A stretch of 58,566 bases of DNA from a virus (lineage: Duplodnaviria > Caudoviricetes). The notes below the pieces were generated by a model that worked only from the letters and a program-made list of their open reading frames with translations, was not told where the DNA came from and did no database searches. The DNA lies in IMG/VR virus record IMGVR_UViG_3300016476_000297, positions 1-58,566 of that record; one strand, given 5' to 3'. This document shows, in pieces, positions 1 through 12,166 of the stretch. A program made the position numbers and the translations under genes. Numbering within the stretch: position 1 is the first letter of the stretch; each line of letters starts with the position of its first letter.

Positions 1-98
1 CGCTTGTCAATGGTTTTCCATGCCACATCGAACGCGATGCGCTTTTTCATGGTGGTTTCGATATCGGTGACGACGAACAGAGTCGGCTTGAAAGGCAT
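1..98 (-). CDS. DEDD-type 3'-5' exonuclease, N-terminal part (runs off window start)
   Basis: Hand translation MPFKPTLFVVTDIETTMKKRIAFDVAW: hydrophobic strand + DIETT = ExoI motif; AAAGGAAA RBS and own promoter at 133-161. Confidence 0.6.
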   Translation of the reverse strand, partial: MPFKPTLFVVTDIETTMKKRIAFDVAWKTIDK

Positions 99-132
99 CT
101 TGCAGGTTTCCTTTGTTTGCTGCGTTGAAATC

Positions 133-161
133 TTTATAGGCGATTCGCACGGGGTGGTCAA
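133..161 (-). promoter_or_regulatory. sigma70 promoter TTGACC-17-TATAAA with CGAATCG in spacer
   Basis: Consensus hexamers with 17-bp spacer, directly upstream of RBS/ATG. Confidence 0.8.
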
Positions 162-180
162 CAACAAAAAAACGTAGCAA

Positions 181-228
181 AATCAATGGGTTGGCGGCGG
201 GGGCGCTGGGGTAGCTAACCCCTTGTTA
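181..228. repeat. 48-bp dyad element copy 1 (IHF-like arm-N6-GGCGCT-N6-inverted arm)
   Basis: aatcaatgggttggc-ggcggg-ggcgct-ggggta-gctaaccccttgtta. Confidence 0.9.
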
Positions 229-420
229 TTCAACGATTTCTGCCCACACTGAAATCTTTTCGCAAGCCTCTTGCCATAGCTGTTGCTGCACATCATCTAG
301 GTATGCATCAATGGCTTCCTGCCCATCCTCGACAACATCGTCAGGCACATCTTCCATCCATTCGGATTCAGTCCCTGCAAAACCCATCGAATAGCCTAGT
401 TTAACCCTCATCTTCTTCAT
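226..420 (-). CDS. small acidic hypothetical phage protein
   Basis: 64-aa ORF overlapping the end of the upstream gene, GAGGA RBS, stop inside dyad 1. Confidence 0.75.
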   Translation of the reverse strand: MKKMRVKLGYSMGFAGTESEWMEDVPDDVVEDGQEAIDAYLDDVQQQLWQEACEKISVWAEIVE

Positions 421-862
421 CCTCTTCTTCTAGCGCATCTTCTGCACATTTCCAACACAGGTTATCGCCCTCCACATTTTCCATATCCCCATGGTGGAAG
501 TGCCAACCGCAACAATCGCAGGTTGAAATTTCTTCCCACACCATATCCTCAACCTTTGAGCGGTCCGAATCGCTCAGTTGCTCAATATCGTCGCCCCATT
601 CCATATAGAATGAACCGTTCGACCCGTCAATAATGTATGCTGCAATTTCTTCAAGAGTAGGGACATGCGCGGGGACGGTAAACACATCAAGAGTGGAGCG
701 AGTAGTGACGATGGAAACAATCTTGTATTCCTGCGACTCGCGGTCCTCGATATTCAGGGCGTGATTCTTTGCAGCCATTTCCGAGTTGAACAGTTCGCCG
801 ACCTGATAACCAGTGTCAGGTCCAGTAGCGCAAAACAGTTGGTATTTGATTTCAGTGGTCAT
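401..862 (-). CDS. hypothetical protein with C-terminal CxxC..CxxC zinc finger and acidic tail
   Basis: Start reassigned to MTTEIKY (AGGAGA RBS, downstream of promoter TTGCAC-17-GATAAG at 884-912); CDCC..CWKC. Confidence 0.75.
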   Translation of the reverse strand: MTTEIKYQLFCATGPDTGYQVGELFNSEMAAKNHALNIEDRESQEYKIVSIVTTRSTLDVFTVPAHVPTLEEIAAYIIDGSNGSFYMEWGDDIEQLSDSDRSKVEDMVWEEISTCDCCGWHFHHGDMENVEGDNLCWKCAEDALEEEDEEDEG

Positions 863-930
863 TGGCTTCTCCTGCGTTATCCTCTTATCGCACGGATAGA
901 CAGCTTGTGCAATAGAAAAGAATGCTTTCA

Positions 931-978
931 TTTCAACAGTTTAGCGGCGGGGGCGCCGCCCCTTGCAAGTGCTTGACT
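931..978. repeat. 48-bp dyad element copy 2
   Basis: tttcaacagtttagc-ggcggg-ggcgcc-gcccct-tgcaagtgcttgact; right half also forms hairpin cccttgcaagt/acttgcaaggg + T-run. Confidence 0.9.
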
Positions 979-991
979 TGCAAGGGTTTTT

Positions 992-1291
992 TCAGTATTC
1001 GCCTGACGGCAGAATCCCATCATAGACAGGACCGTTTTCCGCGATTTTAATGTCCTCATAAGGACCAATAATAACGCGGTTCAGTTCCATTTTAGCGCAT
1101 TCCAGCGCACCAATCATTTCATTCACCACGGCATATTTCAGCCCTTTGGTTTTGATGTAATTGGCGATGAAAGTGGATACCAGAAAATTCAATTCTCCGG
1201 CATTTTCAGGCGTCCAATTAAGGCCGCCCAATTCATCATCGAGCAAATCATTATGAATGTCGATGCGTTGCTGTTGCGGGATATACGGCAT
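992..1291 (-). CDS. conserved phage protein (DUF6899-like), typical neighbour of nucleotide-metabolism genes
   Basis: MPYI...GELNF...IGALECAKMEL.R....PYED.KI.ENG.VY signature. Confidence 0.65.
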   Translation of the reverse strand: MPYIPQQQRIDIHNDLLDDELGGLNWTPENAGELNFLVSTFIANYIKTKGLKYAVVNEMIGALECAKMELNRVIIGPYEDIKIAENGPVYDGILPSGEY

Positions 1292-1292
1292 T

Positions 1293-1736
1293 TTAAGCGA
1301 CCTTTTTCAGAGTTTCGACATTGCGATTGCGACCCAATTGGGACGCGATGGAATAGAAGGCACCTTTGACCAGATTGTCAGTATCCAGCCAAGTCCAGAG
1401 GTGGTGATGCGTAAATGCCACATCGGAAATTCCGTTCGGGCAGATAGAGCCACACTTGCCGACGGCATAAACAGGCTTGCCCATGCCATAGGCCATACCA
1501 ATCTCAACCAGCGCGCCGCGCTGTTCTTCTGCCATATCCTCAGAGTAGAGCAGAACGAAATCGGAGTCTCGCACATCCTCGTAGCACATTTGCCACAGGA
1601 GTCGTTTATTTGATACCACAATCGGGTCATCTTGTTTCAGGTCAATCCAGCGAGCCTGAACGGGCAGGCCGACCGTATCCCGAAGGTGGCGAAACTTGTC
1701 AGCGTGCCAGATTTTGCCAGCGGTGTAGAATTTCAT
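1293..1736 (-). CDS. nucleoside 2-deoxyribosyltransferase / N-glycosidase family protein
   Basis: YTAG N-terminal motif, DVRDSDFVLL, GALVEIGMAYGMGKPVY catalytic Glu motif; promoter TTGTGT-17-TATACA at 1766-1794. Confidence 0.75.
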   Translation of the reverse strand: MKFYTAGKIWHADKFRHLRDTVGLPVQARWIDLKQDDPIVVSNKRLLWQMCYEDVRDSDFVLLYSEDMAEEQRGALVEIGMAYGMGKPVYAVGKCGSICPNGISDVAFTHHHLWTWLDTDNLVKGAFYSIASQLGRNRNVETLKKVA

Positions 1737-1812
1737 GGCGTCTTTTCCTCTCTTGCCGATGATTATGTATAGCCCGATTCGTCAGGTAACACAACAGAAA
1801 AGAATTGAATGA

Positions 1813-1860
1813 AATCAATAGTTTAGCGGCGGGGGCGCCTCGGCACCTAAGTGCCTGAAT
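1813..1860. repeat. 48-bp dyad element copy 3
   Basis: aatcaatagtttagc-ggcggg-ggcgcc-tcggca-cctaagtgcctgaat. Confidence 0.9.
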
Positions 1861-2057
1861 TATAAAGGTTTATTTGCGGCCATTTCACAGAAACGCAGAA
1901 CGTGGTCCAGTTCCTTTTCAAACTGCACAGCATTTGCGTTACCTTTTTCAATCTCGCGTTCTACATCTTCTAGCATGTATCGAATCTTAAGGAAAGCGAC
2001 ACCGCCGTCAGAGTTGACGATTTCAACAATTTTCATCAGTTTAGAGGTCAGCGTCAT
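1860..2057 (-). CDS. small helical hypothetical protein
   Basis: AAAGGA RBS 7 nt before ATG (MTLTSK); stop codon at the edge of dyad 3. Confidence 0.7.
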   Translation of the reverse strand: MTLTSKLMKIVEIVNSDGGVAFLKIRYMLEDVEREIEKGNANAVQFEKELDHVLRFCEMAANKPL

Positions 2058-2080
2058 TTTCATATCCTTTTGTTGTGGCA

Positions 2081-2106
2081 ATAGCAGGGGTGGCCACCCC
2101 TGCTAT
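2081..2106. terminator. perfect 26-bp palindrome (terminator or processing hairpin)
   Basis: atagcaggggtggccacccctgctat. Confidence 0.55.
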
Positions 2107-2295
2107 CACTTCTTACACCTGTCCAGAGGACCGGAGCAGTTTTGGCTGATTAGGCCCACTTCACGCACGTTGTCGCATAGCCCCTTCCGGTGGTGGCTTA
2201 CCCGATATTTTTCATGAGCAATATCAAACCTCATCAAGGCATCCCCTTGCGGATATCTAGCTAACGTCAGGCAATCACCCCTTTCGTCCTTCGAT
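2107..2295 (-). ncRNA. candidate multi-stem structured RNA
   Basis: Lies between promoter TTGCGC-17-TATATT (2302-2330) and the 2081-2106 hairpin; pairings GGTG-ATTGCCTGA/TCGGGTAA-GC-CACC, ATGAG/CTCAT, ACCGGA/TCCGGT; only a weak ORF. Confidence 0.35.
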
Positions 2296-2369
2296 ATAAA
2301 CAATATAGGCGATTCTCAGCAGGAGCGCAAGTAAAATATTCATTTCAATGCTAGAAAAGAATGTAGTCA

Positions 2370-2417
2370 AATCAACGATTTAGATGATATGGCGCCCCGC
2401 CCCCTAACCCTTTGATT
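2370..2417. repeat. 48-bp dyad element copy 4
   Basis: aatcaacgatttaga-tgatat-ggcgcc-ccgccc-cctaaccctttgatt. Confidence 0.9.
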
Positions 2418-2430
2418 TCAAAGGGTTTTT

Positions 2431-2527
2431 TGGTGAGTGACCCGCTGCGGACTCGAACCGCACACCCCCTCTGCAAAGTTGTCAAGTAGTTGCAGCTTCC
2501 TTGACAGGGCGGCACCATACGCGGGCC
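2431..2527 (-). ncRNA. tRNA-like RNA with a pseudoknot in place of the anticodon arm
   Basis: Acceptor GGCCCGC/GCGGGTC, T-arm TGCGG-TTCGAGT-CCGCA, no D-stem, helix TGCC-G-CCCT/AGGG-GGTG closing H-type pseudoknot GTCAAG/CTTGAC + CTGCAA/TTGCAG; ends ACTCACCA. Confidence 0.65.
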
Positions 2528-2531
2528 ATAA

Positions 2532-2557
2532 GGCTAGGCGGCTCTCACCGCCTAGCC
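2532..2557 (-). terminator. GC-rich hairpin after A2-like gene (terminator or processing site)
   Basis: GGCTAGGCGG-TGAGAG-CCGCCTAGCC, 10-bp perfect stem. Confidence 0.55.
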
Positions 2558-2563
2558 GATTCG

Positions 2564-2932
2564 TCAGACCGTCTCCGGTTCCGCTTCTTCCTCAGCGGGC
2601 GATTCGCCCTGCTGCTCAGCCAGCGCGATAACGTGCGCGATGGCTTCCTTGGTGGCACCCATCAGACCCGACACGTCGAAGGCGACCAGCGACTCGAGCT
2701 GATTCAGAAGTTCCTTCTTCGTCGGACCTTCTTCCCGCTTCGCCTTGGGCTTTTCGGGAGCGGCGACGTAGACGCCTTCGCGCACCAGCTTGGAGCGCAC
2801 CGAACGCACGGGCTTGCCGATGGTTTCGGCAATCGTGTCCAGACCTTCGTTGCCGAGTTCGGCATACATCTGGAGCATGGTTTCCACCATAGCTTCGGTG
2901 TAGTTCACTTTCGAGGTTTTCGCATCAGCCAT
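2564..2932 (-). CDS. A2: T5 A2-like pre-early DNA-binding protein
   Basis: Y...M..MY..L...GL..IA...G...RSVRSKL...Y pattern and size match recalled T5 A2; AAAGGAGA RBS; promoter TTGCCC-17-TATAAA at 2971-2999. Confidence 0.7.
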   Translation of the reverse strand: MADAKTSKVNYTEAMVETMLQMYAELGNEGLDTIAETIGKPVRSVRSKLVREGVYVAAPEKPKAKREEGPTKKELLNQLESLVAFDVSGLMGATKEAIAHVIALAEQQGESPAEEEAEPETV

Positions 2933-3038
2933 TGCTTTCTCCTTTGCATCTTGGCTTCTTCAATACAGTCTTTATAAGCGACTCTCAGCGGGTGGGCAAG
3001 AGAAAAATTGCGGCGGCGACTAGGAAAGAATCCTTTGA

Positions 3039-3086
3039 AATCAACGACTTAGCGGCGGGGGCGCCGCGGCTGCTAACCGCTTGTTA
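3039..3086. repeat. 48-bp dyad element copy 5
   Basis: aatcaacgacttagc-ggcggg-ggcgcc-gcggct-gctaaccgcttgtta. Confidence 0.9.
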
Positions 3087-3243
3087 TTCTTGGAGTTTTT
3101 CTCTCTGCATCAAACCAACCTCTGAACCAACATCGGGCATAAACTGTCCCTTGTGTGTAGGGGCAGGAAAACTCCCACCCCTTGAGATACATATCACGGC
3201 CTGCGTTGTATGCAACTTGACGGTTGCCGTGCAGATACGCCAT
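3073..3243 (-). CDS. ribosome modulation factor (RMF/CrpP-fold)-like protein, 56 aa, absent from ORF track
   Basis: MAYLHGNRQVAYNAGRDMYLKGWEFSCPYTQGTVYARCWFRGWFDAERKTPRITSG: AY..G.....G....CPY........W..GW..A signature; GGGAG RBS. Confidence 0.65.
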   Translation of the reverse strand: MAYLHGNRQVAYNAGRDMYLKGWEFSCPYTQGTVYARCWFRGWFDAERKTPRITSG

Positions 3244-3245
3244 TG

Positions 3246-3449
3246 TCAACTCCCGCTGTAAACAATCATGCTCAGGCTGGACCCGACAGCAGACCGCTCA
3301 AACGGACGCTGCGGCTTGTGAGGATACGGACAGCCGGGCACGCCACATGGCCAGATTGCAGGCTCGTTGTTCGTTTCCGACCAGCAATTGATGCCACAGT
3401 TCGGACATTTTCCAGTCGGTTCCATTTTGCGGAAATCTAGCTTGCTCAT
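3246..3449 (-). CDS. small Cys-rich (zinc-binding) hypothetical protein
   Basis: CPNC...C..PGC; AAAGGAGA RBS; promoter TTGACC-17-TATAAC at 3475-3503. Confidence 0.7.
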   Translation of the reverse strand: MSKLDFRKMEPTGKCPNCGINCWSETNNEPAIWPCGVPGCPYPHKPQRPFERSAVGSSLSMIVYSGS

Positions 3450-3522
3450 CAGCTTCTCCTTTGCTGTTATGACCGTTATAGACGATTCTCAGAGTGTGGT
3501 CAACGACAAAATTAGTGTTTAA

Positions 3523-3570
3523 AATCAAAGAGCTAGAGCGTGGGGCGCTCTAGCTGCTAAGTTATTGATA
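3523..3570. repeat. 48-bp dyad element copy 6
   Basis: aatcaaagagctaga-gcgtgg-ggcgct-ctagct-gctaagttattgata. Confidence 0.85.
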
Positions 3571-3999
3571 AAACGAGTGATTTCCTATTCGGATGGTTCG
3601 TCGTTTATGAAAGGCTTGTTTGTGTTTACCGCCGTCAAAGTAAACTGCGCCTTTAGTAGTGTCTATTCCTTCTTCATGAAGGAAGCTGGCACGTAGAGCC
3701 ATGCTCTTTGCAGTAGTCCATGCTTCTTCTTCACGTATTCGAGGTTTATGTTTAGTCCAACTAAACTGGCCTCTTTGATATACCACGCCGCAAATGCTGT
3801 CTGGAAATCTATCATCTTCAGTTCTGTTCAAGGTTACGAACGCTACGGCTAACTGGCCGCTTAATGGTTCTCCTCTTGCTTCGTGGTATATGTTTTGTGC
3901 TAAGCAGTTGAGTTGTTTTTCGCTATACGTAGTCGCATTGGCAGTAAAACCGATCAGGGTCAACGCTAGCACCAATAGTCCGGTGCTCGTGTGAGACAT
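3562..3999 (-). CDS. cell wall hydrolase (SleB / Hydrolase_2 family) with signal peptide
   Basis: CLAQNIYHEARGEP..GQ.AVA.V.LNR....RFP.SICGVVYQ.GQFSW and IGNHSFY motifs; promoter TTGACA-18-TATACT at 4022-4051. Confidence 0.9.
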   Translation of the reverse strand: MSHTSTGLLVLALTLIGFTANATTYSEKQLNCLAQNIYHEARGEPLSGQLAVAFVTLNRTEDDRFPDSICGVVYQRGQFSWTKHKPRIREEEAWTTAKSMALRASFLHEEGIDTTKGAVYFDGGKHKQAFHKRRTIRIGNHSFYQ

Positions 4000-4069
4000 G
4001 TGTTTTCTCCTTTGTTAGTCTAGTATATCTGACAATACCCCTTTGTGTCAAATAAAAAATTTCGTTTAA

Positions 4070-4117
4070 CGATAATGGTTTACGACGCTAGGCGCCTCAT
4101 TCGCTAAACAGTTGATT
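4070..4117. repeat. 48-bp dyad element copy 7 (degenerate left arm)
   Basis: cgataatggtttacg-acgcta-ggcgcc-tcattc-gctaaacagttgatt. Confidence 0.8.
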
Positions 4118-4214
4118 GTAAATGCTTGCCTCACGCATTGCAAGCCGGTCTAGTATTTAGCGAGGGGTCACACGCACCCGAAGGCGTGATTTTCCAATCT
4201 AACTAGATCGTAAC

Positions 4215-4291
4215 TGGTGTTCCCAGAGGGACTCGAACCCCCAACCCCCGGATTATGAGTCCGGCGCTCTAACCAATTGAGCTATAAGAAC
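4215..4291 (-). tRNA. tRNA with CAT anticodon (Met or Ile2), CCA encoded
   Basis: GTTCTTA/TGGGAAC acceptor, D-arm GCTC-AATTGGTTA-GAGC, CCGGA-CTCATAA-TCCGG, TTCGAGT T-loop, ACCA. Confidence 0.92.
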
Positions 4292-4292
4292 A

Positions 4293-4368
4293 TGGTAGGC
4301 ACGGTCGGACTCGAACCGACAGCTTAAGGATTTTAAGTCCTCTGCGTTTACCTTTTCGCCACGCGCCC
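4293..4368 (-). tRNA. tRNA-Leu(TAA), short variable region, CCA encoded
   Basis: GGGCGCG/CGTGCCT acceptor, GAGGA-CTTAAAA-TCCTT anticodon arm, GTCGG-TTCGAGT-CCGAC, ACCA. Confidence 0.9.
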
Positions 4369-4377
4369 TCTATTACC

Positions 4378-4560
4378 CTACTCTAGAGGTTGTGTGCAAT
4401 CACAATCTGAAATGTATTCACTCCAGATTAAATCATATCCAATATCTCTGTTGGCTTCCCAATACCCAACAGATTCTGGATTTAAAGCTACCAGCCATAC
4501 GGCAGCAATAATGTGAAGTCCAACCGTGATGATTACCCAGTTTCTAATCACCGTTGTCAT
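4378..4560 (-). CDS. small membrane protein
   Basis: N-terminal hydrophobic helix; AAGGGAA RBS; promoter TTGCTT-17-TATAAA at 4593-4621. Confidence 0.65.
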   Translation of the reverse strand: MTTVIRNWVIITVGLHIIAAVWLVALNPESVGYWEANRDIGYDLIWSEYISDCDCTQPLE

Positions 4561-4639
4561 TCTAGTTCCCTTCTTTTCCCTTTGTTAAGATATTTATAAG
4601 CGATTCTCAGGCAACAAGCAAGCAGAAAGTTTCTTTTGT

Positions 4640-4687
4640 TGCCAGCATGTTAGCAGACTCAGCGCCGTAGTCACTAACCTGTTGATT
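4640..4687. repeat. 48-bp dyad element copy 8
   Basis: tgccagcatgttagc-agactc-agcgcc-gtagtc-actaacctgttgatt. Confidence 0.85.
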
Positions 4688-4747
4688 TTAAACTGATTTT
4701 GCACAGGATTTCCACAATTTTACCACCGGCGCAGGCAGGAGCCTGCG

Positions 4748-4879
4748 CTAATGCAGGCTCACCATGAAATAATGCGTTCCCGACAAAATCTCACTGGCCC
4801 AATCTTTCACCATTTCCGAAAAGGAACTGTAATGTGCTTCGGTAAAGCACCTGTCTGCGGTCCTGACGGTATATGTCAT
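4748..4879 (-). CDS. 43-aa hypothetical protein, absent from ORF track
   Basis: MTYTVRTADRCFTEAHYSSFSEMVKDWASEILSGTHYFMVSLH; GGAG RBS, starts 1 nt after the upstream stop. Confidence 0.55.
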   Translation of the reverse strand: MTYTVRTADRCFTEAHYSSFSEMVKDWASEILSGTHYFMVSLH

Positions 4880-4880
4880 T

Positions 4881-5063
4881 TTACAACTCCAGCCGCTCAA
4901 AGCCTTCCTGCACCGTGCCGATTTCATCGGCGAAACCGTCGGGGAACTGGACCCACAGCGACGTGCGAATGGTTCCGTCCATCATAACCTCATTCTCGAC
5001 AAAGATTCTGCCGACAACCGATTCGTAGATTGCGGTAGCGAAGGTCTGTCCGGTCAAGTCCAT
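4881..5063 (-). CDS. small hypothetical protein (SH3/KOW-like beta pattern possible)
   Basis: GGAG RBS before MDLTGQ; promoter TTGCAT-17-GATAAA at 5088-5116. Confidence 0.65.
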   Translation of the reverse strand: MDLTGQTFATAIYESVVGRIFVENEVMMDGTIRTSLWVQFPDGFADEIGTVQEGFERLEL

Positions 5064-5135
5064 TTGCATCTCCATCTCTGATGATTCTTTATCGCATAAC
5101 TATCAGAACCATGCAACAGTTAAAAAAGCGTGTGA

Positions 5136-5183
5136 TTTCAGTAACTTAGCCTGCGGGGCGCCGCCCCTCCTAAGTGCTTGTTT
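5136..5183. repeat. 48-bp dyad element copy 9
   Basis: tttcagtaacttagc-ctgcgg-ggcgcc-gcccct-cctaagtgcttgttt. Confidence 0.9.
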
Positions 5184-5194
5184 TTGTTGGGAAA

Positions 5195-5680
5195 TCAGCA
5201 GCTTTGCAGCCGCTGATTTACCTTTACAGCGTTCAGGCACGCAACACCAATCTCACGCATCTTGCGAATCACCGGATAGCTATCATCAAACATTACGACC
5301 GGTTTGCCGCGGAATTGTTTCAGGTTCCGCAGGCGTTGAATCTTTCTAGCCTTCAAAACCGGGTCCTTGATGTGATTCTCAGAACCATCCTCGGGACGGC
5401 ACAAAACAAGGTGGGCGTCAAGCCCATGATGGGCCAGATAGTCCCAATCGTCCTGATTCATGGCACGAGCCGTGCAGATGACCACGTAATTTTCTTTCCT
5501 GTCCAGACGCTTGAACGTATCGGCCAGAGGCAGAAGCGTATCACGGAAGATGCTTTCCCGATTCTTGAGCGCGAAATAGCGGTCCAGATCCAGAGTGCCA
5601 TCGGAACGCGACGGAGTTCTGTGGGCAGAATCAATGATAGTCTCATCCAAATCGAACACAACGACTCTCTTGATTGTCAT
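5195..5680 (-). CDS. HAD-superfamily phosphatase (PNK-phosphatase / nucleotidase-like)
   Basis: VVVFDLDETIID motif I, CTAR motif II, K motif III, MFDD motif IV; promoter TTGCAT-17-TATAAA at 5704-5732. Confidence 0.85.
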   Translation of the reverse strand: MTIKRVVVFDLDETIIDSAHRTPSRSDGTLDLDRYFALKNRESIFRDTLLPLADTFKRLDRKENYVVICTARAMNQDDWDYLAHHGLDAHLVLCRPEDGSENHIKDPVLKARKIQRLRNLKQFRGKPVVMFDDSYPVIRKMREIGVACLNAVKVNQRLQSC

Positions 5681-5750
5681 AGCTTTATCTCCTCTGATGA
5701 TTCTTTATAACCTAGGACGCAATTAAATGCAATAGGAAAGAGTTGTTATA

Positions 5751-5798
5751 AATCAAGACCTTAGAAGGCTGGGCACCTAGTCTGATAAGCTATTGTTT
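5751..5798. repeat. 48-bp dyad element copy 10 (core GGCACC; overlapped by end of GIY-YIG gene)
   Basis: aatcaagaccttaga-aggctg-ggcacc-tagtct-gataagctattgttt. Confidence 0.8.
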
Positions 5799-6451
5799 TT
5801 ATTACGCTTTTCAATATCTGCAAGCCAAGAAATAACAGTAGACCTAGGTATGCCAGTAGAAGTCCATATAGTTATTCTATCGACGCCTTGTTTGTATAAA
5901 TCTTCAACCAACTGTTTTTTACGTTCTTTAGGTGTTCTAGAGTCTTTTAGTAGGTAGCTCAAGTGTTTCCAAGATTCTTTCATTCTTATAGACCTAATAG
6001 TAGATATGTGACAGTTATATTTTTTAGCTATATCAGTATTAGGGTTACCTATATTAATTAGCTCAATAATCTCAACTACCAATGTATCGTTAAGTTTTGC
6101 AAATCCCCCGCTCATATTACCATATTTTGTATATATGGTTTCAAGTCTTTTCTGCTTTACATTATCATCTCTCATAGGGTTGTTAGATGAGTTATGTATA
6201 TTATAAGAACCATCAAAAGCCTTATCTAGCCAAAACTTTTCACGCTCTACGAGATTACTTGTCTCTTCTATAATCTCAAAAGTAAATGACTCATCTCCAT
6301 AACAGTCCCAATCTAATTGTAGTTTATAGTTGTGATGCTCTTGCTTATTAAGAGTTCTTATGTGTCTTTGCCATCTTTTTGTTATATCAGAAGAAGAGCC
6401 TATATAAATTCTATTTTCTGGTAAACAAGTTATTTTATAAATTCCTTGCAT
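5777..6451 (-). CDS. GIY-YIG endonuclease (free-standing homing endonuclease type) with C-terminal HTH-like domains
   Basis: GIYKI...YIGSS..I..RW..H, FTFEIIE, RE..W; markedly AT-rich relative to neighbours; promoter TTGATA-17-CATAAT at 6473-6501. Confidence 0.9.
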   Translation of the reverse strand: MQGIYKITCLPENRIYIGSSSDITKRWQRHIRTLNKQEHHNYKLQLDWDCYGDESFTFEIIEETSNLVEREKFWLDKAFDGSYNIHNSSNNPMRDDNVKQKRLETIYTKYGNMSGGFAKLNDTLVVEIIELINIGNPNTDIAKKYNCHISTIRSIRMKESWKHLSYLLKDSRTPKERKKQLVEDLYKQGVDRITIWTSTGIPRSTVISWLADIEKRNKNNSLSD

Positions 6452-6522
6452 TATAATATTCCTTTCTATTTTATTATGTCAGAAATATTTGGTGTTATCA
6501 AGAAGATTTTTAAAATATTTAG

Positions 6523-6570
6523 CTTCAATGGGTTAGCCTGTGGAGCGCCGCCCTGCATAACCGCTTGATT
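6523..6570. repeat. 48-bp dyad element copy 11
   Basis: cttcaatgggttagc-ctgtgg-agcgcc-gccctg-cataaccgcttgatt. Confidence 0.9.
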
Positions 6571-6583
6571 ATGCAGGGTTTTT

Positions 6584-6841
6584 TCAGGCCGCCTCCAGCT
6601 CGTCGTTAAACACCGTGAACCAATCGGCAGGTTGCGACGTGTCCGTGTCCGACCCTTGCCACGTGAACCCCTCAAACTGAACCTCATACGAGTAGGAATC
6701 GGGACGCTCCAAGAAGATGGCCCACTCGCTGCGTTCGCGCACAGTGCCGACCTGTCCAAACAGTTGTGCGTAGTCACTGTGGTATTTGCCTTGTTCCTTG
6801 CCGCGACCAACGAACCGAACCTGCTGACCCACTTCAAACAT
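6584..6841 (-). CDS. hypothetical protein (KOW/SH3-like, F.VG..VR start)
   Basis: AAAGGAGA RBS; promoter TTGCAA-17-TATACA at 6868-6896. Confidence 0.75.
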   Translation of the reverse strand: MFEVGQQVRFVGRGKEQGKYHSDYAQLFGQVGTVRERSEWAIFLERPDSYSYEVQFEGFTWQGSDTDTSQPADWFTVFNDELEAA

Positions 6842-6914
6842 TTGGCATCTCCTTTGCTGTTATGATTTGTATACGTGATTCGTTGTAGTGTTGCAAGCGG
6901 ATAAAAGTGTCTGT

Positions 6915-6962
6915 TTTCAGTGGGTTAGCCTACGCAGCGCCGCCCTTGCTAACCCGTTGATT
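6915..6962. repeat. 48-bp dyad element copy 12
   Basis: tttcagtgggttagc-ctacgc-agcgcc-gccctt-gctaacccgttgatt. Confidence 0.9.
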
Positions 6963-6974
6963 AGCAAGGCTTTT

Positions 6975-7268
6975 CTAGCTGCACAACCTCTCGACCAGAT
7001 CTTTTGCCTCGCGCAGTGCCAGACGCGGAGTGAAGCAATCGCGCAACAGTTTGATTGCTCCAATCTTGTTTCCTTCCTGAACCAGACACCTGACGTTGTC
7101 CAAGTCGGCAGCGCAGCGGTTGGTATCGTATTCCGTCCGTCCGCTGTCGGGAACCGCCTCACCAGCCAGCCTCGCAGCTTCAAGAAGAGTGTGTGCAATG
7201 TGAAGATTACCGTAGGCATCTTCAATGACGAACCCGTTCTGGGCAACTTTGATATTTTCGAGCCGCAT
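6975..7268 (-). CDS. protein with C-terminal ribosomal bL12 (L7/L12) CTD-like motif
   Basis: GNKIGAIKLLRD....LALREAKDLVE; AAAGGAGA RBS; promoter TTGCAT-17-TATAAA at 7293-7321. Confidence 0.65.
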   Translation of the reverse strand: MRLENIKVAQNGFVIEDAYGNLHIAHTLLEAARLAGEAVPDSGRTEYDTNRCAADLDNVRCLVQEGNKIGAIKLLRDCFTPRLALREAKDLVERLCS

Positions 7269-7340
7269 AGTAATCTCCTTTGCTGTTAATTATTTATATC
7301 TGATTCGCAAGCGTCATGCAAGCCTGAAATATGTGTTAGT

Positions 7341-7388
7341 TGTCAAAGGGTTAGCACGCAGGGCGCCCAGACCCGTAACCTGTTGATT
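7341..7388. repeat. 48-bp dyad element copy 13
   Basis: tgtcaaagggttagc-acgcag-ggcgcc-cagacc-cgtaacctgttgatt. Confidence 0.9.
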
Positions 7389-7533
7389 TTGCACGAAAAT
7401 CTTACCTAAAATTCACACCTAAATCGCACCTACTTCCCACCGGCGCAGGCTCCGCCTGCGCTTATGATACTACGTATCAAGCGATTCGTCAAGGCCAAAA
7501 ATGAACTGGTCGAAAAGGAACTAGGCAAGCGGC

Positions 7534-7881
7534 TCACTTGAGCCGCTTGAGGGTCTTGGCAACCGAACCTTCCTTGATGCCGACAGTGAAGGCCACGCGG
7601 ACGATTTTTTGATTGACAGCCCAAACCGACTCTGCGACCGATTCGCTACGCATGGCAAATTCCCAAGCCGTTTTATCACTTTTCGCTTTGTTACAAGCGC
7701 CGCACAGGCATTGCAGGTTTTCCACAGTGGCCTTGCCGCCGTCCGACTCGGGGTGGATGTGGTCGCATTCCAGCGCGAAGGCATAGTTTTCCGAACCGCC
7801 GAACCCGCACGCGCGGCAGGTGAACGAGTCGCGGGCCAGAACCTTCGCGCGAACCGTGTCCGAGATCTTTGCCTTTGCCAT
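7534..7881 (-). CDS. HNH endonuclease
   Basis: Start reassigned to MAKAKIS (AAAGGAGA RBS; promoter TTGACA-17-TATAAA at 7910-7938); RD..TC..CG...DHIHP...GG....NLQ.LC..CN..K. Confidence 0.85.
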   Translation of the reverse strand: MAKAKISDTVRAKVLARDSFTCRACGFGGSENYAFALECDHIHPESDGGKATVENLQCLCGACNKAKSDKTAWEFAMRSESVAESVWAVNQKIVRVAFTVGIKEGSVAKTLKRLK

Positions 7882-7971
7882 CGCCCGTCTCCTTTGCTTC
7901 GGTGATTCTTTTATACGCCGATTCGCCCGACCTGTCAACGATAACATTTTGTGTTTCAGTGCCGATTTCCC

Positions 7972-8000
7972 TTGACAAGTTTGAGGCCGAATCGTATAAT
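7972..8000 (+). promoter_or_regulatory. plus-strand (antisense) sigma70 promoter, type-B element 1
   Basis: TTGACA-17-TATAAT with CGAATCG, followed by CGGCGCC and hairpin GGTGTGGC/GCCACACC. Confidence 0.7.
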
Positions 8001-8038
8001 CGGCGCCAGGTGTGGCTGATTCGCCACACCCTCGCTTT

Positions 8039-8284
8039 TTATGCGGCCGCAAGGATTCCGACCTTGACAGCCCACGCATCGTCGATAACCAGAACCGTCG
8101 GGACGCCGACTCGCTCACCGTCCTGTGCAGTGGCGATGACCACGCTAGCGCGGTCCTGCTCATGACGGACAAGGATCTTGGCCTTGGGAACCCACAGCGG
8201 CTTGACGCCCGCCTTAACGTCGCGACGCGCGACAAAGGCAACAGCGGCTTCAGTTTCGCGGACGATGTAACCTGTGGTCTGCAT
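8039..8284 (-). CDS. hypothetical protein, paralog of 10079-10324
   Basis: TGYIVR.T.AAVAFV....AGV.P.W.P..K...TAQDGERVG.P; AAGGAGA RBS; promoter TTGCGA-17-GATAAA at 8314-8342. Confidence 0.8.
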   Translation of the reverse strand: MQTTGYIVRETEAAVAFVARRDVKAGVKPLWVPKAKILVRHEQDRASVVIATAQDGERVGVPTVLVIDDAWAVKVGILAAA

Positions 8285-8386
8285 CTGGGTCTCTCCTTGT
8301 TTCCCGATGATTCTTTATCGCATGTCCCGCAGCGATTCGCAAGGACTATCATGCTATCAAGTTTTATTTCAGCGTGCCGATTTCGC

Positions 8387-8415
8387 TTGACAAGAATCGG
8401 GCGGCGTTGTAAAAT
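8387..8415 (+). promoter_or_regulatory. plus-strand sigma70 promoter, type-B element 2
   Basis: TTGACA-17-TAAAAT followed by CGGCGCGTGATTCGG. Confidence 0.65.
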
Positions 8416-8433
8416 CGGCGCGTGATTCGGCCC

Positions 8434-8562
8434 TTAGCGGGCCTTCACTTTCTGAAGCTGAAGAGCGAGGCGATACATCGCCGTGCGAAGATCTCGAGGC
8501 ATCGAACCGAGCGGCCCGAGCGGGCGACCGAGGCGGAGTTCGAGGATCTGGCGAGCGGTCAT
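8434..8562 (-). CDS. 42-aa basic hypothetical protein
   Basis: AAGGAGG RBS before MTARQIL; promoter TTGCGA-17-GATAAA at 8597-8625. Confidence 0.65.
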   Translation of the reverse strand: MTARQILELRLGRPLGPLGSMPRDLRTAMYRLALQLQKVKAR

Positions 8563-8668
8563 GGGAACCTCCTTGGCTATCCCGTTTCGATGATTCTTTA
8601 TCGCACGTCCTATCGTGATTCGCAAGACCTTTCTAAGATAACATTTTATATTTCAGTGTCGATTTCGC

Positions 8669-8696
8669 TTGACGCGAATCCTGCTTAGTGTATAAT
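8669..8696 (+). promoter_or_regulatory. plus-strand sigma70 promoter, type-B element 3
   Basis: TTGACG-16-TATAAT followed by AGGCGCGTGATTCGGGC and hairpin GATTCGGGC/GCCCGAATC. Confidence 0.6.
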
Positions 8697-8728
8697 AGGC
8701 GCGTGATTCGGGCTAGCGCCCGAATCTG

Positions 8729-8947
8729 TTACGCGTAGATCCGCGCAATCCGCTCGCGCAGCATGGATTCGTTCCACGCATCCCACAGTTGATTCACGCG
8801 CTCGCTGTGCTGTGCATAGGCGGCTTGCAAGCCCGCCAGCACCAGCGGCTTGGCGTTGCGCGCACGCGCGCGAGTCAGCCTCTCAAACGCCCGCTCGGCA
8901 GTGACAACGGCTGCAATCATCTCGCGAAGGGTTTCATGGGTGTGCAT
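8729..8947 (-). CDS. small helical hypothetical protein
   Basis: AAAGGAGA RBS; promoter TTGACT-17-TAAGGT at 8972-9000. Confidence 0.75.
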   Translation of the reverse strand: MHTHETLREMIAAVVTAERAFERLTRARARNAKPLVLAGLQAAYAQHSERVNQLWDAWNESMLRERIARIYA

Positions 8948-9019
8948 AGCAATCTCCTTTGCTCATGCTTAACCTTAGGTCGATTCGTCTCGGCAGTCAA
9001 GCACTGAAATGTATAGTAG

Positions 9020-9067
9020 TTTCAGTAGGTTAGCTCCTGGGGCGCCACCCCTGCTAACCTATTGATT
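9020..9067. repeat. 48-bp dyad element copy 14
   Basis: tttcagtaggttagc-tcctgg-ggcgcc-acccct-gctaacctattgatt. Confidence 0.9.
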
Positions 9068-9084
9068 ATGCAGGGTTTTTTCTG

Positions 9085-9276
9085 TCACTCGGTGGAGTGG
9101 TCCATCTCGCAAGTCAGAGCGAAGTCATTGACATCAAACGTATTTTCCAGTAGAGCTTGTTGCTCCTCGATTCGCACCGCGCAATCCTCGGCGGTCATGT
9201 CGTAGTCCACAACATATGCGAGATCCGGCGTGTCAGCGCCAAACAGAGTCAGAACGAGGATGAACGTTGCGGCCAT
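9085..9276 (-). CDS. small hypothetical protein (hydrophobic N-terminus, two Cys)
   Basis: GGAG RBS; 63 aa. Confidence 0.7.
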   Translation of the reverse strand: MAATFILVLTLFGADTPDLAYVVDYDMTAEDCAVRIEEQQALLENTFDVNDFALTCEMDHSTE

Positions 9277-9294
9277 TTGATTACTCCAGGTTGA

Positions 9295-9471
9295 TTATTT
9301 CAGGGTCACGCGGATAGGTTCGGCAGGAGGATTGACAAGGTATCCCGATTCGTCAATGCCCCAAGCCGCCCTGTCATTCACTGTTACCACCTCAGCACTA
9401 CCAGAGTCAAGCAAGATCCAGCCCGACGCGATGGCGATGGCGGCAGCGGCTAGGAAGATTACTACTTTCAT
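9295..9471 (-). CDS. 58-aa signal-anchored/membrane protein, absent from ORF track
   Basis: MKVVIFLAAAAIAIASGWILLDSGSAEVVTVNDRAAWGIDESGYLVNPPAEPIRVTLK; GGAG RBS. Confidence 0.6.
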   Translation of the reverse strand: MKVVIFLAAAAIAIASGWILLDSGSAEVVTVNDRAAWGIDESGYLVNPPAEPIRVTLK

Positions 9472-9528
9472 TTTTCAACTCCAGCGTGTTCGGTTTTTAA
9501 CTTCGGTTTTAGACTAGGCGGCTGGCGG

Positions 9529-9807
9529 TCAATCGACCGCCGTCGCCCCATACTCCAGCGCGTCCGCGTGGCTCCACCCCATCGCCCGCGCGGCGTGATA
9601 CGCGCCGATCATGGTTTCGTGACGCGACTCCGACTTGCGCGACTCGCGCACCGAGTCCGCCGCCGCGCGCTTGCCCTCGCGCATCGCGGCGTAGATCGTC
9701 CGGTCGGACTCAATCGCGCGCTTGCCCGCGTCAACGCGCGTGACCTGCCCGCCCTTAGCCGCGAACGCTGCTTTCATCGCTTCCAGATCCATCGCCACTT
9801 TCGCCAT
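9529..9807 (-). CDS. hypothetical protein
   Basis: GGGAGA RBS before MAKVAMD; AF.AKGG.V motif. Confidence 0.7.
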   Translation of the reverse strand: MAKVAMDLEAMKAAFAAKGGQVTRVDAGKRAIESDRTIYAAMREGKRAAADSVRESRKSESRHETMIGAYHAARAMGWSHADALEYGATAVD

Positions 9808-9919
9808 CGCCGGTCTCCCGATTCGCGGGGCAAGCCCTGCGCCGCCCCTATGCCTCGACAATGCCCCATTCGACCGGACTAGTCAACCATCAAGTTTTGT
9901 TTCAGGACCGCATTTGCTA

Positions 9920-9948
9920 TTGACACGGGCGAAAACTCGTGGTAGAAT
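9920..9948 (+). promoter_or_regulatory. plus-strand sigma70 promoter, type-B element 4
   Basis: TTGACA-17-TAGAAT followed by CGGCGCCTGATTCGG; faces a minus-strand promoter TTGACA-18-TATAAT at ~9990-10019. Confidence 0.65.
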
Positions 9949-10032
9949 CGGCGCCTGATTCGGCGAATCGCCCAGTCGGCGCCTGCCCCATTATAACATG
10001 GCGAATCGGGCCATGTCAATCCCCCTAAACAG

Positions 10033-10058
10033 AAAAAACCCCATCCTTTCGGATGGGG
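10033..10058 (-). terminator. Rho-independent terminator
   Basis: CCCCATCC-GAAA-GGATGGGG-TTTTTT on minus strand just after gene 10079-10324. Confidence 0.85.
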
Positions 10059-10078
10059 CTGGATTCGAGGCGTGGCCG

Positions 10079-10324
10079 TTAGGCCAGCACGCCAATCCGG
10101 TCGAGGAAAGCCGACTCAACCTCGACGGTAGCAGGGATGCCGACACGCTCGCCATCTTGCGCCGTGACAATCCGGCGGCCCATGCAATCGGCCTCGCGCA
10201 CGCGGCCCAATTTCTTGCGGGGGATCCAAATCGGGCGCACGCCCGACACGCCCGCATCCGCCTCGCGCACGAAAGCAACGGCGGCGTCGGTGGAACGAAC
10301 GATATATCCGGTCAGGTTCAGCAT
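10079..10324 (-). CDS. hypothetical protein, paralog of 8039-8284
   Basis: 81 aa from MLNLTGY (GGAGA RBS); same length and motifs as 8039-8284. Confidence 0.8.
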   Translation of the reverse strand: MLNLTGYIVRSTDAAVAFVREADAGVSGVRPIWIPRKKLGRVREADCMGRRIVTAQDGERVGIPATVEVESAFLDRIGVLA

Positions 10325-10476
10325 GGCGGGTCTCCGATTCGCGGGGCAGGCACCTTGCCGCCCCCTCACGAATCAAGATACGGGATTCCGCTTGGCGATG
10401 CAAGCGGAATCTTTTGCTTGCACGCCTCGGCATTGCAAGGTATAAAGAATCAACGGCAACGAAAGGAACCCGAATC

Positions 10477-10821
10477 ATGGCCACCAAGTCCCGCATCCCC
10501 GCCTCCATCCGCGCCCACGTCATGGCCACGTTCGCGGGCTGCGTCGCTTGCGGATCGCGCGAAGCGAATCATTGCGGGCATATCGTCCCCGAGTCGAAAG
10601 GCGGCGCAATGGTCAAGGAAAATTTCGTGCGCCTCTGCGAATCGTGCAACACGACTCAAGGCGCTGTCCATGTCAAGTTCAAAGCGTTCGCTGAGCCCGT
10701 TTCGCTCGACGCCACCTACGGCGAGGCGCTGGCGACGATCCAGACGAATCGGGCTTACTGGGCGCGCTACTGCTCGGCGGCTCGCGGCAATGTCAAGCTG
10801 AATCCTTACGACCCCCGCTAA
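10477..10821 (+). CDS. HNH-like protein, paralog of 7534-7881
   Basis: CVACG...CGHIVPESKGG....NFVRLCESCN; AAAGGAA RBS; promoter TTGCAC-17-TATAAA at 10418-10446. Confidence 0.75.
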   Translation: MATKSRIPASIRAHVMATFAGCVACGSREANHCGHIVPESKGGAMVKENFVRLCESCNTTQGAVHVKFKAFAEPVSLDATYGEALATIQTNRAYWARYCSAARGNVKLNPYDPR

Positions 10822-10848
10822 TGGCGGGGGCTGCTATACTAAGGTATG

Positions 10849-10881
10849 GGGCAGATACCTAGGCGGATACCTAGGCGGATA
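10849..10881. repeat. short tandem repeat, 12-bp unit GGC(A/G)GATACCTA, ~2.7 copies
   Basis: ggcagatacctaggcggatacctaggcggata. Confidence 0.7.
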
Positions 10882-11150
10882 GTGTGGCAGTTATGCCACG
10901 CGACGCCAAAAATTATCTGCTTGACACCCTAGGGCGGTTCTTAGGACTTGGTGATTCGGTGATTCGCGGGGCACTTCTCCAGGAAAATTATCAGGTATTT
11001 TTAGGACTTCGCTTTGGATTTGTTGCGTCAGAATCTGACGAAGAAGTGACACAAGAAATTTTAGGAATAACCAAGCACCCTGCGCAACTTCGTTGCAACC
11101 TGTTGTTGTTAGTTTGCCTACGTCACTTCGTGACTGCGATCGATCATCGG

Positions 11151-11226
11151 TCTCACCTTTTCTCAATCGTCTCACACCCACTCACATTGTCTCACCGATC
11201 TCTCACTTCGCTCACGCTCTCTCACT
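11151..11226. repeat. helically phased CTCAC repeats (8 copies, ~10-bp period)
   Basis: CTCA starts at 11152, 11162, 11171, 11181, 11191, 11202, 11211, 11221. Confidence 0.85.
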
Positions 11227-11256
11227 AGGTGTCAAGAGGATTTTAAAAATATTTGT

Positions 11257-11285
11257 TTGACTTCACACTCAGTTCATCATATAAT
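11257..11285 (+). promoter_or_regulatory. sigma70-type promoter opening the virion module
   Basis: TTGACT-17-TATAAT, ATG 6 nt downstream. Confidence 0.75.
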
Positions 11286-11291
11286 CAATGT

Positions 11292-11729
11292 ATGAACAGA
11301 CGCCAATCTCAACTAAAAATCATCGAAGCGCTAAAGCAAATTGACGGTCGCACGAGTCCGTGGAACCCCTCATACACATTCAATGTTGATGTACATGAAA
11401 CAGTGCTCGACCATGATGAGTTCATTGAGAACGTAAACTCGTTTCCGTGTGTGATGGTAACTGTGACTGACACGATGATTCGTCACATCGGCGGCGGAGA
11501 GCGTTATGTGGTTAGCTCGTTTCGAATCCGAGGAATCACTTGGGATGAGCGAACCGAGGAAGCTGAAGAGCTCCTAGCTGATGACATAGAACACGTTATC
11601 TCACATATGCGATCCGCTGAACCTGAGTTTGACGAAATCAGAATTGACACTGTTCAAACAGATGAAGGACTTAACGCACCGTTGGGGGCTGTCGTTGTCC
11701 AAGGAACCATGGTGTATAGACATGACTAA
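11292..11729 (+). CDS. tail terminator/completion-like protein, paralog of 35707-36156
   Basis: RR..I...L.QI.G..SP....Y.F..D.H......D..N.FP and DIEHV motifs shared with 35707-36156. Confidence 0.6.
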   Translation: MNRRQSQLKIIEALKQIDGRTSPWNPSYTFNVDVHETVLDHDEFIENVNSFPCVMVTVTDTMIRHIGGGERYVVSSFRIRGITWDERTEEAEELLADDIEHVISHMRSAEPEFDEIRIDTVQTDEGLNAPLGAVVVQGTMVYRHD

Positions 11730-12165: not shown

Positions 12166-12166
12166 T

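Follow-up and report, generated by a model that had tools for sequence, protein, structure and literature searches.

The stretch of DNA considered here (the window) is the full 58,566-base contig of an uncultured virus, IMG/VR record IMGVR_UViG_3300016476_000297, for which CheckV gives a completeness of 45%; it holds neither terminal repeats nor a replication module. The plus-strand genes from ~10.4 kb onward constitute a siphovirus virion module, comprising small and large terminase, portal, tail terminator, major tail protein, chaperones, tape measure, a J-like tail tip and spanins. The left arm, spanning 1–10.4 kb on the minus strand, contains ~26 small genes, most of them with their own sigma70-type promoter (cTTGCA, 17 nt, TATAnA), together with two tRNA genes, a GIY-YIG homing endonuclease and a cell-wall hydrolase. 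The subject of this analysis is a GANTC-containing box that is embedded in the left-arm promoters, and its likeness to the sites of GcrA, which with the methyltransferase CcrM forms the best-understood bacterial methylation-reading transcription cofactor system, described for cellular cell-cycle genes.

The left arm looks like the early region of a freshwater siphovirus distantly related to T5; we call it early by analogy, because its layout resembles that of the annotated T5 early region (NC_005859). In both, numerous small genes share a strand and are driven individually by strong sigma70 promoters, with terminators, tRNA genes and homing endonucleases interspersed, whereas the early proteins of T5 are unrelated to those of the window. 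The hallmarks of T5-like siphoviruses (Demerecviridae and kin) are present, namely, homologous terminase, portal, protease and capsid genes, a long non-contractile tail module and early-type small genes with tRNAs, albeit at a distance (31–44% identity): the terminase is 39–44% and the protease and capsid are 31–35% identical to proteins of T5-like phages of Gammaproteobacteria, which are the closest cultured relatives by these proteins.

Promoter positions and box centres are inferred from the sequence, with the start assumed to lie 7 nt after the −10 box and the −10 hexamer set at −12 to −7. On the gene strand, the prevailing form reads cTTGCA or TTGACC, 8–10 nt, (C/A)GAATC(G/A), 3–4 nt and TATAnA, followed by a ribosome-binding site and start codon; the sigma70-type core itself (TTGNNN, 17 nt, TATAnA or GATAAA) stands upstream of a ribosome-binding site and open reading frame (ORF), with a spacer inside the 16–18 nt range. 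An earlier, sequence-only reading of this DNA had placed GA(A/G)TC 3–4 nt upstream of the −10 box in 11 minus-strand promoters, and all 11 are indeed there, although two are weaker. In the promoter at 133..161, the GAATC box occupies 142–146 (plus-strand numbering), reads CGAATCG and lies 3 nt upstream of TATAAA, with an inferred centre at −18; in that of the 147-aa gene (1766..1794), the CGAATCG box at 1776–1780 is 4 nt from TATACA and is centred at −19. Four further promoters carry AGAATCG or the single GAGTC box of the window: 2302..2330 (2311–2315, AGAATCG), 3475..3503 (3484–3488, AGAATCG) and 4593..4621 (4602–4606, AGAATCG) all have the box centred at −18, whereas the promoter of a 122-aa helix-turn-helix gene, 2971..2999, has GAGTC at 2980–2984, which is GAATC in a look-alike and apparently orthologous promoter of a related locus (L002). 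CGAATCA, which is TGATTCG on the template strand, is found at 6877–6881 in promoter 6868..6896, and CGAATCA recurs at 7302–7306 in promoter 7293..7321, both centred at −18. Promoter 7910..7938 has CGAATCG at 7920–7924 (centre −19) and a second GAATC at 7904–7908, at about −3. The two weaker, promoter-like cases, also on the minus strand, are 8972..9000, where CGAATCG at 8982–8986 precedes the poor −10 box TAAGGT, and 10375..10403, where the flanks of the box at 10384–10388 (GGAATCC) fall outside YGAKTCK, and TGATTCG then follows at about −4.

In three more minus-strand promoters, GANTC had been said to overlap the −35 box, and this is confirmed in each: 7464..7492, with the box at 7483–7487 overlapping the hexamer (TTGACGAATCG; centre −28), and 8314..8342 and 8597..8625, both of which have an extended −10 box (TGcGATAAA in the former) and two boxes, one centred at −29 (8334–8338 and 8617–8621, respectively) and one at about −4 (8309–8313 and 8592–8596). 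A box following the −10 element, in the form TAAAGAATC, is likewise seen as claimed, at 5088, 5704, 7910, 8314, 8597 and 10418; it is the sole GAATC in the minus-strand promoters 5088..5116 (TGcGATAAA; 5083–5087, about −4) and 5704..5732 (5699–5703, about −4). On the plus strand, these sites read mostly CGATTCG, TGATTCG, CGATTCT or TGATTCT, in line with the CGATTCG and TGATTCG that had been noted as common. The statement that the virion promoters are free of GANTC holds for 14 loosely defined plus-strand sigma70-like sites (10300 to the end), but not for the first plus-strand promoter at the divergent junction, 10418..10446, which has GAATC at about −4 and CGAATCA at about +22.

GANTC is enriched in the left arm only. 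Relative to dinucleotide-preserving shuffles, there are 43 sites versus 27.8 ± 5.1 in 1–7450 and 59 versus 23.4 ± 4.8 in 7450–12200, whereas there are 120 versus 113.2 ± 10.3 from 12200 to the end. Left-arm coding sequence is itself somewhat enriched (59 sites in 8681 nt). The positional enrichment against shuffled sequence, a check set by the sequence-only reading, is pronounced: TTGNNN-N7-10-GANTC-N3-5-TANNNH matches 12 sites in 1–12200 versus 0.73 in 100 mononucleotide shuffles (maximum 4), and 4 versus 5.07 in the virion arm, which is the chance level. T5 is without positioned GANTC (6 sites versus 5.44 in shuffles of the first 50 kb, with 2 matches to GAATC-N3-4-TATA in the entire record), and the phage SIO1 has 3 promoter-pattern sites versus 3.01 in shuffles.

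The selected unit extends beyond the pentamer. When sites of the window are read on the strand with G or T at the centre, 32 of the 39 intergenic GANTC sites of the left arm fit YGAKTCK, and 31 of these 32 have a central T (CGATTCG 12, TGATTCG 8, TGATTCT 6 and CGATTCT 5); the fit is 18/44 scored sites in left-arm coding sequence and 35/135 in the virion arm, the latter equalling the 25% expected by chance. The conserved unit is the heptamer YGATTCK with a GANTC core, not the bare pentamer.

Relatives reached via the 147-aa and 122-aa early proteins bear this out: nine loci from six uncultured virus contigs (L001 to L006, L013, L014 and L039) share the promoter architecture of the window. Candidates were picked blind to GANTC: TTGNNN and a −10 box of the TA type had to be 16–18 nt apart, with a ribosome-binding site and an ORF of ≥40 codons to follow. 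Among the 75 that are non-identical in the window and the nine loci, GANTC lies 3 nt before the −10 box in 17 and 4 nt before it in 33, that is, in 50/75, with ~0.6 expected from base composition; it lies 6–7 nt away in another five and is missing from 18. Information is high only at TTG, at the box with its flanks and at TATA, most other spacer positions having <1 bit, down to 0.05. The heptamers are CGAATCA (17), CGAATCG (16), AGAATCG (6), AGAATCA (6), TGATTCG (5) and CGATTCG (3), all of which are YGATTC(G/T) on the strand with the central T; the centre letter on the non-template strand is mostly A (46, against 8 T, 2 G and 1 C), such that 54/57 boxes are GAWTC. The asymmetric word TGATTCG is on the template strand in 17 cases and on the non-template strand in 5. 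In pairwise comparisons of promoters, the centre letter mismatches in 12% versus 41–49% for the positions beside it; since both members of each pair were chosen for GANTC, these counts are circular for its other letters, and the centre letter alone is informative. A short-query BLAST search with the promoters against cultured phages gave chance matches only. Judged on sequence, the YGATTCK box within these promoters is genuine and under selection, both in the window and in the six related contigs.

A looser definition of the −10 box, admitting GATAAA, gives 123 non-identical candidates, in which box centres cluster at −19 (40) and −18 (16), −29 (11), −4 (14) and −3 (4), and −21/−22 (6); the −29 and −19 peaks are separated by one helical turn. 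Over the window and its box-carrying relatives, 132/154 boxes fit YGAKTCK. Additionally, four near-consensus promoters on the plus strand (7972, 8387, 8669 and 9920) have TGATTCG downstream of the start, at about +5 in three and at +14 in one.

The box is confined to one lineage. The family of the 122-aa protein is encoded on 52 related virus loci, 51 of which were scanned: three (L013, L014 and L039) have the box, and their contigs were already in, or near, the box-carrying group, whereas 48 are without it. In ten loci outside the group (nine of the 48, and L007), not one of 151 candidate promoters has a box at −18/−19; these promoters typically read TTGACA or TTGCAA, 14 nt and TGcGATAAA, i.e. 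they have an extended −10 element. Promoters of the TGcGATAA type are retained in the window at 884, 5088, 8314 and 8597, of which 884..912 (minus strand; TGcGATAAG) is box-less, as in the related box-less loci. Within the window and the box-carrying relatives, a box at −18/−19 and TG at −15/−14 are largely exclusive (5/56 versus 24/67; Fisher p 0.0005, kinship ignored). Our reading of this pattern is that the box came to stand in for the extended −10 contact as an aid to the promoter, and such a replacement would be in keeping with a cofactor that helps the polymerase to bind and to form open complexes.

Several other features accompany the boxes. Three plus-strand promoters lie within the minus-strand gene region, each with a hairpin within ~10–40 nt: 7972..8040, a consensus promoter directly followed by a terminator hairpin (8009–8030, with a T-run), has CGAATCG near −16, and its hairpin loop contains TGATTCG near +14; 8387..8445, with a short hairpin, has AGAATCG near −26 and TGATTCG near +5; and 8669..8730 has CGAATCC at about −25, TGATTCG at about +5 and another GAATC at about +22. 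Their predicted RNAs are ~30–45 nt long and antisense to the 3′ end of the neighbouring gene, and the arrangement is also seen in L002 and L008. At 9920..10019, two consensus promoters ~40 bp apart face each other (plus strand, 9920–9948; minus strand, 9990–10019). The GC-rich, partly palindromic stretch between them contains three GANTC boxes and could be a regulatory switch or a replication-related site. Two boxes, TGATTCG and CGAATCG, are common to both promoters; they are spaced 8 nt start to start and lie near +5 and +13 of the plus-strand promoter. A pair of 81-aa paralogues (8039–8284 and 10079–10324, minus strand; 46% identical) each lie within a repeated unit of the GANTC-dense 7.9–10.4 kb region.

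Just downstream of the box promoter at 2302, the stretch 2160–2284 is matched with zero differences by a 150-nt metatranscriptome contig of depth 98.9, neighbouring contigs having depths of 2–6; the public RNA runs were used as contigs, so cover is patchy and uncovered parts are uninformative. This stretch is without a convincing ORF and may be an abundant small RNA; the minus-strand RNA of 2084–2296 folds no better than shuffles (z 0.09). Terminator-like hairpins with a T-run on the plus strand punctuate the minus-strand genes at 960–986, 2406–2427, 6550–6579 and 6944–6969; each adjoins a conserved gene-strand stem-loop, GGTTAGC ... GGCGCC ... GCTAACC, then TTGATTT, and the combined module is also kept in distant relatives that do not have the GAATC box. 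In L007, at 6350–6800, where the encoded 147-aa protein is 63% identical to that of the window, two promoters have the spacer word GACCGCGCC directly before TATAT, at the place where the window has its GAATC box. The known RNA families passing their gathering scores in 1–12200 are the two tRNAs alone; a 91-nt tRNA-like gene called by ARAGORN at 2437–2527 (minus strand), with no identity assigned, matches no Rfam tRNA model at expect values up to 0.1.

The conserved 122-aa early protein (2564..2932, minus strand) has an N-terminal helix-turn-helix and is a candidate DNA-binding factor. Its family is large (1934 matches, 338 cluster representatives); the alignment of distant members proved too diverse for a scan of the collection, and a closer alignment was used. 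The family is not tied to the box, because 48 related loci have the former without the latter. We also considered whether this protein is itself a phage GcrA, and rejected the idea: the PF07750 cut-off of 26.9 bits is not reached, one orthologue scoring 12.5 bits and the protein of the window having no Pfam match. Among 89 family members, GcrA PF07750 is hit weakly by 9 (best expect value 0.0011), Sigma70_r4_2 by 31 and Myb by 16. A profile search of solved structures did not retrieve GcrA, and a fold search gave generic helix-turn-helix matches, all with expect values >0.2 and none to GcrA.

As for the remainder of the phage, there is a sharp step in G+C content, from ~50% in the early arm (1–12200) to ~38% in the virion arm (12200–58566), and the early arm contains AT-rich islands at the cell-wall hydrolase (3562–3999) and GIY-YIG endonuclease (5777–6451) genes, each with a box-less promoter; that of the hydrolase, 4022..4051 on the minus strand, is of consensus type. 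The step and the islands suggest a mosaic origin. The junction of the arms is not an assembly artefact, because the independent contig L008, whose small terminase is 90% identical, has the same promoters beside the same terminase gene. In the virion arm, a single 848-aa ORF (29657–32203, plus strand) has an N-terminal match to prohead protease, the remainder matching major capsid protein; in T5-like phages, the two are encoded by adjacent genes. The tape measure protein (38389–49041, plus strand) is exceptionally long, with 3550 aa; tail length scales with tape measure length in other siphoviruses, and a very long tail is implied if that rule holds. Its size, together with GC-rich hairpins, had raised the idea of an N4-like virion RNA polymerase acting at hairpin promoters, which was discarded as the ORF matches tape measure protein and lies within a siphovirus tail module. 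No match to a T7-type RNA polymerase was found, a result of little weight given that the same search found none in any control genome either. DNA of the phage is present in freshwater, estuary, wetland and other aquatic metagenomes of 11 studies, one of which is possibly the source study.

What, then, might read the box? The published GcrA boxes offer a close precedent, at least in the sections consulted of two Caulobacter studies. The GcrA consensus is given as TGATTCG, or more broadly YGAKTCK, and the sites of the direct regulon fall either in a sharp peak near −20 or broadly across +2 to +30 (PMC4647560); elsewhere, the boxes are placed in the spacer at −20 ± 1 and −30 ± 2, or downstream at +5 to +30, the spacer positions being attributed to the need of the DNA-binding domain for the face opposite the polymerase (PMC9976885). 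GcrA is described there as a monomer on a flexible linker (PMC9976885), and a word that occurs in both orientations is more easily squared with a monomeric reader on a flexible tether than with a fixed contact of the polymerase. Additionally, GcrA has been reported to promote polymerase binding and open-complex formation (PMC4647560). We would put at about even chances what we regard as the best explanation, that a GcrA-type cofactor of sigma70 reads the box in a host whose DNA carries CcrM-type methylation, and the phage probably borrows the GcrA system of its host. In such a scheme, a CcrM-type enzyme would methylate the boxes at the N6 position of adenine, a GcrA-type cofactor on domain 2 of the host sigma70 would read them, and the reading would raise RNA polymerase binding and open-complex formation at promoters that do not have the extended −10 TG of related phages. 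The scheme would require the host to be an alphaproteobacterium, or else the unseen half of the phage genome to encode a GcrA-like protein. A search of five records for region 2 of a phage sigma factor found none, which was counted in favour of the scheme. CcrM homologues of SAR11 and of a Rhizobiales genome bin are stated to methylate GAWTC rather than GANTC, in the part of PMC8919816 that was consulted, and the 54/57 phage boxes that are GAWTC fit either an enzyme of this type or the preference of GcrA itself for T.

A number of observations weigh against this explanation. The sequence-only reading had called for a search for gcrA or ccrM homologues, and no such gene came to light: across the window and nine related records, which are 6–65% complete, nothing matches PF07750 above its cut-off and no PF01555 methyltransferase is found. 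Nucleotide and protein searches found no cultured phage that shares the early proteins, giving a tRNA match and distant T5-like structural matches only; the closest cultured relatives by terminase and capsid (31–44%) are T5-like phages of Gammaproteobacteria; and in bacterial assemblies, relatives occur only in three metagenome bins of unrelated phyla, which are probably mis-binned phage contigs. A protein atlas search returned viral clusters only, and for an alphaproteobacterial host no evidence was found beyond the motif itself. In seven cultured alphaproteobacterial phages (SIO1, RDJL Phi 1, DSS3phi2, RcapNL, phiCbK, Cr30 and phiM12), GAATC-N3-4-TATA does not exceed a reversed-pattern control, with 0–3 matches each, a weak test that bears neither way on the host because the pattern presumes an AT-rich −10 box and such hosts may use others. 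GANTC is undepleted in the virion arm (120 versus 113), whereas it is generally depleted in alphaproteobacterial genomes, according to the portion consulted of PMC8919816, and RDJL Phi 1 depletes it to 0.02 sites per kb. The box lies 3–4 nt from the −10 hexamer, as opposed to 5 nt in the PcsM-derived scaffold of PMC9976885 (as given in the sections consulted), which puts the centres at −18/−19, at the edge of −20 ± 1. Moreover, the promoters are related by descent, so the p-values, which ignore this, are too small and overstate independence.

The boxes at −4/−3, 18 in the 123 candidates, are a further difficulty, as they fall outside the published GcrA ranges; the consulted sections of PMC4647560 report almost no sites near the −10 element. 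The proposal that the phage uses CcrM–GcrA activation fares unevenly at the sequence level: the extended word, the strand and the first two predicted positions match GcrA boxes, but the sites at about −4 are where Caulobacter has almost none. This class may simply reflect a (T/G)AATCATC consensus that follows the −10 element. It could be incidental, because promoters without a −4 box read TAATCATC where the −4 class reads GAATCATC.

The best-surviving alternative, which we consider unlikely though well worth keeping in view, is that a different sequence-specific factor, from the phage or from a non-alphaproteobacterial host, reads the box, its likeness to GcrA sites being convergent; candidates are the 122-aa helix-turn-helix protein, a protein encoded in the unseen ~55% of the genome, or a host factor. 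A lineage-specific factor predicts just such a distribution as is seen, with the box limited to the window and six related contigs and other promoter forms outside, and L007 indeed has another spacer word, GACCGCGCC, at the same place in two promoters. The strongly conserved early helix-turn-helix protein of the window, the incompleteness of the records (just 6–65%) and the gammaproteobacterial hosts of the nearest cultured relatives all add to its appeal. Against this, the 122-aa family extends well beyond the box (48 related loci that encode it have no box), no other known factor with the same specificity came up, and a phage-made activator would be unable to serve the very first promoters unless it were injected with the DNA. 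It is also unlikely that an independently derived consensus would be matched by chance in word, in strand and at two or three positions, the chance rates being ~1 in 4 to 1 in 16 for the flanks and ~1 in 250 per position for the GANTC core.

That no extra factor is involved, the box being a spacer element that the host RNA polymerase holoenzyme reads directly or via DNA shape in place of the extended −10 TG, strikes us as distinctly improbable. Such an element would account for the main position being fixed at 3–4 nt from the −10 box, for the near exclusion of TG and for the mostly constant orientation (GAATC 46 versus GATTC 8 on the non-template strand). However, a single polymerase contact leaves unexplained the same heptamer at −29, −4, +5 and +13/+14 and in both orientations; neither T5 (6 versus 5.44) nor SIO1 (3 versus 3.01) has an element of this kind, and similar promoters of related loci outside the group do without the box. 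Functions other than initiation (restriction-modification or anti-restriction sites, a signal for replication or packaging, or mere descent from a single duplicated promoter) would suit the modest enrichment of GANTC in left-arm coding sequence, where 18/44 scored sites fit YGAKTCK, and the dense packing of sites in 7450–12200, but sit poorly with the sharp position relative to −35 and −10, with the free variation of neighbouring spacer bases while the box is kept, and with promoters of unrelated genes having only the box, TTG and TATA in common, and we rate them as highly improbable.

A GcrA-type reader would invite a bolder idea, that of an epigenetic clock, which builds on the early-off switch proposed in the sequence-only reading: GAWTC boxes carrying N6-methyladenine in virion DNA would let host GcrA–RNA polymerase fire ~twenty early promoters at once, and the hemi- or unmethylated copies arising by replication would lower reading by GcrA and shut the early genes off without a phage repressor. 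If true, it would tie the success of infection to the cell-cycle stage of the host, GcrA and CcrM being cell-cycle regulated. We think it improbable. Replication that leaves DNA unmethylated would leave the packaged DNA unmethylated at the next entry as well, unless there is a late methyltransferase; the clock thus needs the progeny to be methylated before packaging, by a late phage methyltransferase encoded in the unseen half or by a host in which CcrM stays active, and no such late methyltransferase was found in the partial records. The small effect of methylation on the dissociation constant (Kd) raises a related concern: methylated probes have a Kd just 1.4- to 1.7-fold lower in vitro, in the section consulted of PMC4647560.

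Were the boxes to be read by GcrA, viruses would be shown to exploit an epigenetic reader, with its preferred word built into most early promoters at helical docking positions. The ~fifty natural promoter variants would serve for dissecting box position, orientation and flanks, and the pattern would provide a sequence-only marker that predicts alphaproteobacterial hosts of uncultured phages. GcrA-type promoters themselves are known; a phage group with GcrA-type boxes in most of its early promoters is a pattern that we did not find in the literature on GANTC in phage promoters, on GcrA and phage early promoters, or on GcrA homologues in phage genomes.

Among known systems, two from phages touch on this one. 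Sites of another host cell-cycle regulator, CtrA, occur in promoters of alphaproteobacterial phages (Mascolo et al. 2022, PMC9437464); these share with the window the presence of such sites in phage promoters and differ in both the regulator and the word. In the sections consulted of that study, scans of phage genomes for the motifs of GcrA, SciP and DnaA revealed positional asymmetry in none of the subsets, so the pattern of the window is not described in those sections. The phiCbK-like Caulobacter phages, in what was consulted of Gill et al. (2012, PMC3556154), likewise indicate that alphaproteobacterial phages engage the GcrA circuit; there the regulator gene is on the phage, whereas here we find a cis-element, with no PF07750 match over the cut-off in ten partial records.

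The closest likeness is to the GcrA/CcrM promoters of Caulobacter crescentus, PcsM and PmipZ, as the consulted parts of PMC4647560 and PMC9976885 present them. There are differences: these are phage rather than cellular promoters, which resemble the Caulobacter ones in sequence; the centre base of the phage box is nearly always A or T (54/57); and the phage −10 boxes are AT-rich, of the Escherichia coli type. Shared are the sigma70-type core and a GANTC with YGAKTCK context, predicted box positions near −20 and −30 in the spacer or just downstream of the start, and phasing by one helical turn; GANTC lies within about 40 bp of the inferred start, as is characteristic of GcrA promoters. In the cryo-electron microscopy scaffold derived from PcsM, GAATC is on the non-template strand, 7 nt after the −35 element and 5 nt before the −10 hexamer, and the phage likewise has GAATC on this strand; the PmipZ scaffold has two boxes 8 nt apart (PMC9976885), as do the two downstream boxes of the phage promoter at 9920, start to start. 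Overall, in every feature that can be tested on sequence, the phage promoter would seem to work like a GcrA-dependent promoter.

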